A stretch of 8,395 nt of DNA from a virus (lineage: Monodnaviria; Loebvirae; Hofneiviricota; Faserviricetes; Tubulavirales; Inoviridae), in IMG/VR virus record IMGVR_UViG_2537562014_000001. One strand, given 5' to 3'. Below the pieces are notes generated by a model. The model was not told where the DNA came from. It made no database searches and saw nothing but the letters and a program-made list of their open reading frames with translations. Shown piece after piece: positions 7,278 to 7,643 of the stretch (its first letter is position 1; each line of letters begins with the position of its first letter). Both the position numbers and the translations under genes were made by a program.

Positions 7278-7643
7278 ATGAAGAAAAAAATGAAAATAGC
7301 ATTGATGCTAATAGGTGTGACACTAAGCGCGAATGCAAAAAGTAATTATGAAACATACAGATGCAATAATAACAACTGCAAAAAAGACCAATATCTGGGG
7401 AAGGTGAGAAAAGAAATACAAAAGCACATAGAAAAAGAAAACACAAAACGATACAAAGGTAGAATATGTGAATTCAAAATAAATTTAGAAATGGATGGAA
7501 AAATGAACGGGATTCGAAATATAAAAGGTGATTATGAGCTATGCAATATGGTTGTAAAGGCAACGAAAAATATAAAAGTAGATGCGCCAACGAAGGAGCA
7601 ATACAAAGAATTTAAAAGTTTAAATATCTATTACAGGCCATAA
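7278..7643 (+). CDS. Secreted TolA C-terminal domain (domain III)-like protein, 121 aa
   Basis: RBS GAGGG before ATG. Signal peptide MKKKMKIALMLIGVTLSANA. The mature part aligns by eye with E. coli TolA domain III: DQYLGKVRKEIQK vs NNYAGQIKSAIES; CEFKINLEMDGKMNGIRNIKGDYELC vs CTLRIKLAPDGMLLDIKPEGGDPALC (both Cys conserved); C-terminal YKEFKSLNIYYRP vs YEVFKNAPLDFKP. TolA sequence is recalled, not searched. Confidence 0.65.
   Translation: MKKKMKIALMLIGVTLSANAKSNYETYRCNNNNCKKDQYLGKVRKEIQKHIEKENTKRYKGRICEFKINLEMDGKMNGIRNIKGDYELCNMVVKATKNIKVDAPTKEQYKEFKSLNIYYRP

Follow-up and report, generated by a model that had tools for sequence, protein, structure and literature searches.

A Filamentous Prophage of Escherichia coli Encodes a Predicted Exported TolA Domain III That May Serve as a Periplasmic Decoy

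Introduction

Why should a filamentous prophage carry a gene for TolA's C-terminal domain (domain III, TolA-III), the common gateway of filamentous phages and group A colicins? This question is raised by a small open reading frame (ORF) in the Inoviridae record IMGVR_UViG_2537562014_000001 of IMG/VR, of which the whole stretch of 8,395 nucleotides (hereafter the window) was analyzed. An earlier note, made from the letters of the sequence, had read this ORF of 121 amino acids (aa) as a secreted mimic of TolA-III. The sequence features described in the note are confirmed throughout, and our analysis supports part of its reading, in that the protein is a stand-alone TolA-III domain with a predicted export signal, encoded in a prophage cassette; the part that implies a faithful mimic is less secure, as two ligand-binding surfaces are poorly conserved. 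We tentatively propose that the protein is a decoy for parasites that dock on TolA-III, and weigh this proposal against its alternatives below. The features discussed are collected in Table 1.

Table 1. Features of the window, with the basis of each assignment.
Feature	Position	Strand	Basis or remark
ORF for stand-alone TolA domain III, 121 aa, intact	7278..7643	+	ORF list
Predicted signal peptide, aa 1-20	7278-7337	+	Inspection
Short Cys-containing N-terminal tail between signal peptide and fold, aa 21-32		+	
TolA-III fold, aa 33-121	7374-7640	+	Pfam, AlphaFold2, Foldseek
Shine-Dalgarno-like GAGGG, 3 nt ahead of ATG	7270-7274	+	Sequence reading
AT-rich cargo cassette, 31% GC	about 7246..7670	+	Alignment with two relatives, annotations, GC
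Conserved small ORF, 68 aa (phrog_2503)	7028..7234	+	Divergent from Rep gene
Divergent intergenic region, Rep (-)/68-aa ORF (+)	6874..7027	.	Sequence; conserved in relatives
Filamentous-phage core	465..6873	-	Pfam, PHROGs, matching PGAP annotation in related genomes
Secretin N-terminus, ends at aa 116	465-815	-	
Zot/pI	825-2081	-	
pVI-like	2089-2448	-	
pIII, 441 aa	2451-3776	-	
N1 (TolA-binding) domain of pIII, aa 30-111 of 441	3444..3689	-	Pfam, PDB homology
pVIII-like	3832-4209	-	
Small ORFs within the core		-	
Candidate single-stranded DNA-binding protein, 141 aa	4414-4839	-	Position
GPA-type replication endonuclease (Rep)	5032-6873	-	
attP-like forked hairpin, two inverted dif-like sites	7855..7975	-	Single-stranded DNA folding

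A Stand-Alone TolA Domain III With a Predicted Export Signal

The earlier note had suggested a profile search and a structural superposition as checks, and both place the protein within the TolA C-terminal family. The Pfam profile PF06519 matches aa 34-117 over profile positions 11-94 of 96 (E = 4.5e-12), with a score of 46.5 bits against a gathering cut-off of 25. Searching the PDB sequences with phmmer retrieved the E. coli TolA-III chains 1s62, 3qdp, 2x9a_B, and 1tol (E = 6e-6 to 2.5e-5), in alignments that reach the final residue of both the query and TolA. In family alignments of 20 and 40 sequences, C64, C89, G61, G74, and G84 are invariant, the two cysteines corresponding to the disulfide pair of TolA (C363/C388 in E. 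coli). The C-terminal motif Y109-x-x-F112-K...Y119-R120-P121 likewise matches Y409-x-x-F412-K...F419-K420-P421 of TolA, so that the block-wise likeness described from the letters, including both cysteines and the C-terminal ending, is borne out. The protein also has an extra cysteine pair, C29 and C34, and is very basic and Lys/Asn-rich, with an isoelectric point (pI) of 9.5.

The predicted structure agrees with these assignments. An AlphaFold2 (AF2) model, computed from the 40-sequence alignment, has a predicted local distance difference test score (pLDDT) above 90 over aa 29-121 and is disordered N-terminal of that. When this model was compared with the PDB using Foldseek, the top matches were the E. 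coli TolA-III chains 3qdr_A, 2x9a_B, 3qdp, 1tol, and 1s62, superposed with a root-mean-square deviation of 1.4-2.0 Å over 86-90 columns and a probability of 1.0. Target-normalized template modeling (TM) scores of the stand-alone TolA-III chains were 0.72-0.87, with the 1tol fusion at 0.50, and TonB C-terminal domains ranked far below TolA-III. The model thus has the three-stranded sheet packed on helices of TolA-III and can be superposed on the solved structures.

Export is predicted by inspection and hydropathy. The N-terminus has the three parts of a Sec-type signal, MKKKMK, the hydrophobic stretch IALMLIGVTL, and SANA/KS, with a Kyte-Doolittle peak of 2.1 in an 11-residue window, an A-x-A signal peptidase I site, and no lipobox. 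The ribosome-binding site proposed earlier is also found, its 3-nt GAGGG-ATG spacing being short but usable. As had been noticed at the outset, the gene lies in an AT-rich island: its guanine-cytosine (GC) content is 0.31 and that of the small upstream ORF is up to 0.33, against 0.43-0.55 in the phage genes, and GC is 0.29-0.34 over positions 6900-7650 compared with about 0.43-0.59 elsewhere in the window.

It is worth noting that the protein is not a TolA, because domains I and II are absent. The full-length TolA equivalogs of NCBIfam, NF007065 and TIGR02794, score below their cut-offs (61.9 against 213 and 43.8 against 59.45) and are matched solely in their C-terminal parts, at positions 298-386 of 387 in the one model and 270-359 of 362 in the other. 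The gene is located outside the tolQRA-tolB-pal cluster, with filamentous-phage genes as its neighbors. We rejected a real alternative TolA because of the missing domains; the N-terminus is a cleavable signal peptide. We also rejected a fragment of host tolA picked up through imprecise excision, which does not agree with 26% identity to E. coli TolA, 31% GC, and a signal peptide of its own. In annotation by the Prokaryotic Genome Annotation Pipeline (PGAP), the gene product is already called [quoted passage not shown]; thus, the domain identity itself is not new.

Relatives on Other Mobile Elements

A first, word-indexed homology search returned one near-identical cluster of 16 members, and the family was recovered only by an exhaustive search over 1.84 billion representatives, which gave 39 hits, together with a profile search. 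Many of the 39 hits are proteins of 110-170 aa that consist of a Sec or lipoprotein signal and TolA-III. Such exported TolA-III-only proteins are encoded on at least three kinds of filamentous prophage. In a Salmonella diarizonae filamentous prophage, the gene adjoins those for secretin and Zot, and at two further loci it and a secretin gene are convergent. E. coli has a second filamentous prophage family with such a gene, located between rspA and rspB; 6 genomes have it, some in as many as 4 copies. The rspA/rspB prophage of E. coli 2017.06.05CC (locus L020, 11001-22141) encodes an IS110-family transposase, which is a possible integrase, and a homologue of the F-pilin acetylase TraX, beside its own TolA-III gene.

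The family extends beyond filamentous phages. Lambdoid prophages in 136 of 5426 E. coli genomes, as well as phage mEp460, carry a lipoprotein form after Q in the late region, and Enterobacter has a TolA-III-only gene in a phage-like context. On 317 plasmids, mostly conjugative Klebsiella plasmids (MOBH/MPF_F), the TolA-III gene adjoins psiA, while on a 6.2-kb ColRNAI bacteriocin plasmid of K. oxytoca (L005) a TolA-III lipoprotein gene lies beside a gene for an Exc2-family exclusion lipoprotein. This plasmid also encodes a colicin-release lysis protein and has two unannotated ORFs at the positions expected for bacteriocin and immunity genes. In PHROGs, the match is to phrog_5772, listed as "unknown function." To judge from these contexts, exported TolA-III-only proteins have been captured independently several times, and the 121-aa protein is the most diverged and the rarest of the set.

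The TolA-Binding Domain of the Resident pIII

The pIII of the resident phage has an N1 domain, supported by a match to Pfam Phage_Coat_A (E = 7e-8) and by homology to the g3p N1 chains 3dgs, 2g3p, 2x9a_A, and 1tol in the PDB (E = 4e-6 to 4e-4); these homologues include the N1 of IF1, which was crystallized with the TolA C-terminal domain. It also retains an ATGV(I/V)V strand, its ATGVIV aligning with the TGVVV segment of fd/M13 g3p that pairs with beta3 of TolA. V44 in this g3p segment is the site of a proline mutation used as a probe of strand addition onto TolA beta3. From these sequence likenesses, entry of the resident phage very probably passes through the contact of N1 with TolA-III, for which free TolA-III could compete. 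In other respects, long linkers rich in Gly/Asp/Asn/Ser occur twice in this pIII (at about aa 92-115 and 205-245), as in g3p, and of the two disulfides in the N1 of fd g3p it has kept just the first (C35-C63).

An Exchangeable Slot Next to a Small ORF

In a three-way alignment of the prophage with relatives in strains ESC818 and 700481, shared sequence runs up to position ~7245 of the window and resumes from ~7671. The slot between these positions holds a gene for a DUF2726 (restriction-endonuclease-like) protein in ESC818 and no gene in 700481; judged by this alignment, the TolA-like gene is exchangeable cargo. The ESC818 cargo (locus L003, 10766-11332) is a 188-aa DUF2726 protein with a weak REase_MTES_1575 match and an N-terminal hydrophobic segment, and its presence points to the slot being a hotspot for defense-type cargo in this phage group. 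Directly after the cassette there is a GC-rich (~65%) non-coding block (7671-7790) that is near-identical in the DUF2726-carrying relative and may be a replication or packaging signal or a recombination boundary of the cassette.

The 68-aa ORF and the TolA-like ORF run in the same direction, the former lying upstream across a gap of 43 nt. In its position, the 68-aa ORF is analogous to rstR in CTXphi and YPO2273 in YpfPhi, and by this analogy is suspected to encode a regulator. A by-eye look had suggested a ribbon-helix-helix repressor, which was not adopted, as Pfam, NCBIfam, and PDB sequences gave no matches; nor did Foldseek return a significant match to its two-helix AF2 model, computed from the single sequence (pLDDT 84). 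The divergent region between this ORF and the Rep gene has dense TGCA(A/C)A/GTGCAA repeats at positions 6900-7000, which look like an operator array. The array is conserved in 700481 and replaced in ESC818, whose small ORF also differs. Presumably, the region holds promoters for Rep on the minus strand and for the 68-aa ORF and the TolA-like gene on the plus strand. Since the TolA-like gene lies downstream of the small ORF and on the strand opposite the replication and morphogenesis genes, it might be expressed apart from virion production.

A Possible Periplasmic Decoy and Its Alternatives

Our tentative proposal is that the 121-aa protein is a decoy in the periplasm, through which the carrier cell would exclude superinfecting phages or tolerate colicins; we infer its expression in lysogens, its binding partners, and its phenotype. 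Consisting of a Sec signal peptide and TolA-III, and having neither the membrane anchor (domain I) nor the helical domain II, it would be a soluble periplasmic protein. In TolA itself, domains I and II provide the coupling to the TolQR motor; a decoy would have no such coupling, so that ligands bound to it would go nowhere. The free domain would intercept ligands that need to dock on TolA-III in order to cross the periplasm, the first candidates being the pIII N1 domains of incoming filamentous phages of the same kind, and further possible targets being the translocation domains of Tol-dependent (group A) bacteriocins. The outcome would be superinfection exclusion, colicin tolerance, or both. 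As the contact between TolA and TolB is weak (dissociation constant, Kd, about 40-200 uM), moderate levels of a decoy could trap tighter-binding parasites while Tol-Pal is spared. An engineered fusion of a signal peptide to TolAIII is active in the periplasm, where it has been used for the release of periplasmic proteins to the medium. Levengood-Freyermuth and colleagues are said to have found in 1993 that periplasmic TolAIII makes cells tolerant to group A colicins. The decoy reading is further strengthened, circumstantially, by the N1 domain in the phage's own pIII, the exchangeable slot, and the recurrence of such proteins on unrelated mobile elements.

Whether the protein could bind these ligands depends on surfaces that have been mapped on TolA-III. 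Phage g3p-N1, colicin N, and the N-terminus of TolB bind by strand addition onto the C-terminal beta3, helix alpha1 contributes to the binding of g3p-N1, and the site of colicin A is beta2 (LLDIKP) (PMC4339652, PMC7391070). Here several findings count against a decoy. The 121-aa protein is 26% identical to E. coli TolA 334-421, and neither of the ligand surfaces beta3 and alpha1 is conserved in it, identity being 1/8 in beta3 (LNIYYRP compared with APLDFKP in TolA) and 3/17 in helix alpha1 (DINNYAGQIK in TolA); the colicin A box in beta2 is similarly diverged (2/9). Binding to E. coli-type ligands thus cannot be assumed. Strand addition depends mainly on backbone hydrogen bonds, so binding by a diverged beta3 is still possible, and Y39, G41, and the geometry of strands and helices are retained despite the divergence of beta3 and alpha1. 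From the sequence, the ligand specificity of the 121-aa protein must nonetheless differ from that of host TolA.

The sister proteins show a different pattern. Whereas beta3 is the least conserved part of the 121-aa protein, most of them are host-identical there. Seven Sec-type relatives (P0041, P0077, P0068, P0026, P0022, P0004, and P0016), which include those located beside filamentous-prophage genes, share 50-63% of residues with E. coli TolA-III over the whole domain and are 8/8 identical to host TolA in beta3; in most of them the C-terminal 14-mer is also host-identical and the colicin A box is diverged. The retention of beta3 despite 50-63% overall identity suggests selection on the binding surface, a pattern that would be expected from selection for a competent beta3 binding site.

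The distribution of the gene, its alleles, and its upstream region raise further objections to the decoy reading. The TolA-like cassette is rare: it is present in 4 of 5426 complete E. coli genomes, it forms one cluster of 16 members in the protein database, and a scan of IMG/VR with the single 121-aa protein found no relatives. Between the two alleles there are 7 non-synonymous and 2 synonymous substitutions; the dN/dS (ratio of non-synonymous to synonymous rates) is near 1 but has very little power with these 9 substitutions, and a truncated 61-aa variant exists. In the strains that carry the gene, related filamentous prophages lie in tandem and composite arrays, so that any exclusion is not absolute. 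In addition, a promoter scan upstream of the gene found no consensus promoter on the plus strand, and the regulator role of the 68-aa ORF drew no support from the comparisons with PDB sequences, the AF2 model, or Foldseek.

It is also conceivable, although we regard it as unlikely, that the protein is a Tol-Pal antagonist, with free TolA-III competing against host TolA for the N-terminus of TolB. Tol-Pal would then be partially uncoupled, and a leaky outer membrane or hypervesiculation might aid the release of phage, colicin, or cargo, or alter traits of host interaction. The beta3 site is common to TolB, g3p-N1, and colicin N, and engineered periplasmic TolAIII does release periplasmic proteins into the medium, but the low TolA-TolB affinity (given above) implies that strong over-production would be needed, and the beta3 of the 121-aa protein differs from that of host TolA, which predicts poorer competition. 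The late location of the lambdoid versions, between Q and the lysis genes, and the sharing of a plasmid by the bacteriocin-plasmid version and a colicin-release lysis gene would suit antagonism; however, the ColRNAI gene is paired with an exclusion lipoprotein and lies on the strand opposite the lysis gene. Moreover, filamentous phages extrude via their own secretin, with no obvious gain from leakiness, and a tol-like phenotype is costly.

Two other explanations appear less probable. It is quite unlikely that the gene is a hitch-hiking or decaying cassette, i.e., an AT-rich TolA-III fragment from an unknown donor, possibly silenced and with no current function in E. coli. The 31% GC, the dN/dS of about 1 among alleles (9 substitutions), the truncated 61-aa variant, the great rarity, and the diverged binding surfaces all fit decay, yet the reading frame is unbroken and has a full signal peptide and a ribosome-binding site, all fold-determining residues and the disulfide pair are kept (with the high model confidence over aa 29-121), a 54%-identical relative keeps the same signature, and the wider family has been repeatedly captured by mobile elements. 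Very unlikely, in our view, is a role as a buffer for the phage's own pIII. While pIII waits in the inner membrane, its N1 domain is exposed to the periplasm and may jam TolA, and a TolA-III cap might spare Tol-Pal or keep pIII competent for assembly. The resident pIII has the N1 domain that this requires, and in Pf phages pIII is recorded as interacting with TolA and TolR. According to what is reported of work by Boeke, Model, and Zinder in 1982, expression of g3p is toxic, with tol-like effects, which would also favor a buffer. Against it, the gene is dispensable, as close relatives with near-identical structural genes are without it or have DUF2726 instead; it lies on the strand opposite the morphogenesis operon; and homologues are also carried by elements lacking pIII, namely lambdoid prophages and plasmids.

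Returning to the decoy, a broader form of the proposal is possible but more doubtful: exported TolA-III-only proteins might constitute a widespread, unrecognized receptor-decoy defense of mobile elements in the periplasm, of which the 121-aa protein would be a diverged member. Filamentous prophages would keep out phages of their own type, conjugative plasmids would compensate for the susceptibility to pilus-specific filamentous phages that comes with having pili, and lambdoid prophages and bacteriocin plasmids would gain tolerance to Tol-dependent bacteriocins. The 121-aa protein, in turn, might be tuned to the N1 of its own phage while avoiding TolB.

The Filamentous Prophage Around the Gene

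The window has the core genes of an inovirus, namely Zot/pI, pIII, pVI, pVIII, a replication endonuclease, and a truncated secretin. At its other end, downstream of the TolA-like gene, the attP-like hairpin carries the XerC-arm GTGCGCAYAATG at 7867-7878 (+) and 7949-7960 (-); its single-stranded DNA fold has a predicted energy of -44.7 kcal/mol (z = -11.6), and it is conserved across all three aligned relatives. By its sequence design, this attP is of the CTX type, in which the single-stranded genome would be integrated in a XerCD-dependent manner. Near-identical prophages in complete E. coli genomes form tandem arrays adjoining hipBA, a position that we take to be dif, the chromosome dimer resolution site. 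A tandem location by hipBA fits the CUS-1/YpfPhi group, in which the genome end beyond the rstR-like gene holds variable ORFs with no known function (PMC4266046). On these sequence features, the element is a dif-integrating, CUS-1/YpfPhi-like filamentous prophage of E. coli.

Several further observations concern the structure of the element. A copy of IS100 (insertion sequence of the IS21 family) abuts the secretin gene and truncates secretin at residue 116 (window 1-815); the gene for the IstB helper ATPase fills 1-455, and the IstB fragment at 12-455 is 99% identical to IS100kyp copies in E. coli and Yersinia phage records. Because secretin is cut by IS100, this prophage copy lacks an export channel of its own. 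In E. coli UTAK-18 (L001), an 11.2-kb composite unit in tandem has one set of structural genes and two replication modules, one with a "phage/plasmid replication" protein and a helix-turn-helix (HTH) regulator and the other with the GPA endonuclease plus the small ORF and TolA-like gene. In its make-up, the unit resembles a product of recombination between two phage types or a satellite arrangement of the RS1 kind. Two units of ~120 bp, ~88% identical and about 305 bp apart, are located at positions 7960-8080 and 8271-8380, each ending with a long AT-rich hairpin and a T-run that is terminator-like on the minus strand. These repeats may be left over from phage ends that once lay in tandem, or may represent a phage-end module present twice. 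An Rfam scan of the window found no match.

Novelty and Implications

Full-text searches of the literature found no description of a phage- or plasmid-encoded TolA-III decoy; one paper merely names phage "TolA" among auxiliary genes. PADLOC gave a chance-level hit only (E = 0.03), so the protein is not placed in any defense family catalogued there. The earlier judgment that this is not a described defense module is in keeping with the literature, with PADLOC, and with the PHROGs entry, for which no function is described; it needs to be qualified in that the domain itself had already been named by PGAP. The proposed function, and how widely exported TolA-III-only proteins occur among mobile elements, appear to be new.

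If soluble or lipid-anchored copies of TolA-III are in routine use by mobile elements, periplasmic receptor-domain decoys would represent a new defense logic in bacteria, as opposed to receptor loss or masking, and a number of prophage and plasmid genes mis-annotated as "tolA" would be accounted for. Consequences would also follow for how filamentous prophages accumulate as polylysogens at dif and for the fitness trade-offs that conjugative pili bring. In addition, the family would supply natural variants in which the binding of parasites is separated from that of TolB.

Comparison With Known Systems

The closest reference is TolA-III of E. coli itself (about residues 333-421; 1TOL, 2X9A, 3QDP/3QDR, and 1S62), with which the phage protein shares the fold, the order of secondary structures, the disulfide pair, and the C-terminal ending. 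By contrast, at 26% identity, the phage protein is a free domain in which a cleavable signal peptide replaces domains I and II; it is basic (pI 9.5), has diverged beta3 and alpha1 and the extra C29/C34 pair, and is encoded by a prophage. The same architecture of signal peptide plus TolA-III was engineered in periplasmic TolAIII with the signal sequence of ribose-binding protein (Levengood-Freyermuth et al., 1993; Wan and Baneyx, 1998). In that case a construct with native E. coli sequence is over-expressed in the laboratory, whereas the phage protein is natural and diverged, and its export is predicted.

Among mobile elements, small "tolA"-annotated proteins, such as phrog_5772, the mEp460 lipoprotein, the product of the psiA-adjacent plasmid gene, and that of the exc2-adjacent ColRNAI gene, have the same design with a Sec or lipoprotein signal. 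Most of them are 50-68% identical to host TolA-III, many with beta3 identical or nearly so, while the 121-aa phage protein belongs to a much more diverged, AT-rich branch. For none of these small proteins did the sources consulted describe a function.

With respect to function, the T5 protein Llp and the phi80 and N15 proteins Cor are phage lipoproteins that mask FhuA and thereby protect the carrier from phages and colicins sharing this entry component. Llp and Cor bind and block the receptor, whereas the TolA-III-like protein is a copy of a receptor domain. Exclusion by filamentous phages, i.e., by pIII acting on TolA, TolR, or pilus components, by PfsE blocking type IV pili, or by repressor immunity, would have the same purpose if the decoy reading holds, and would share with it the entry step at the contact of pIII-N1 with TolA-III. 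In known exclusion, a phage protein saturates a host receptor; the decoy would be the mirror image, in which a surplus receptor domain saturates the incoming ligand.

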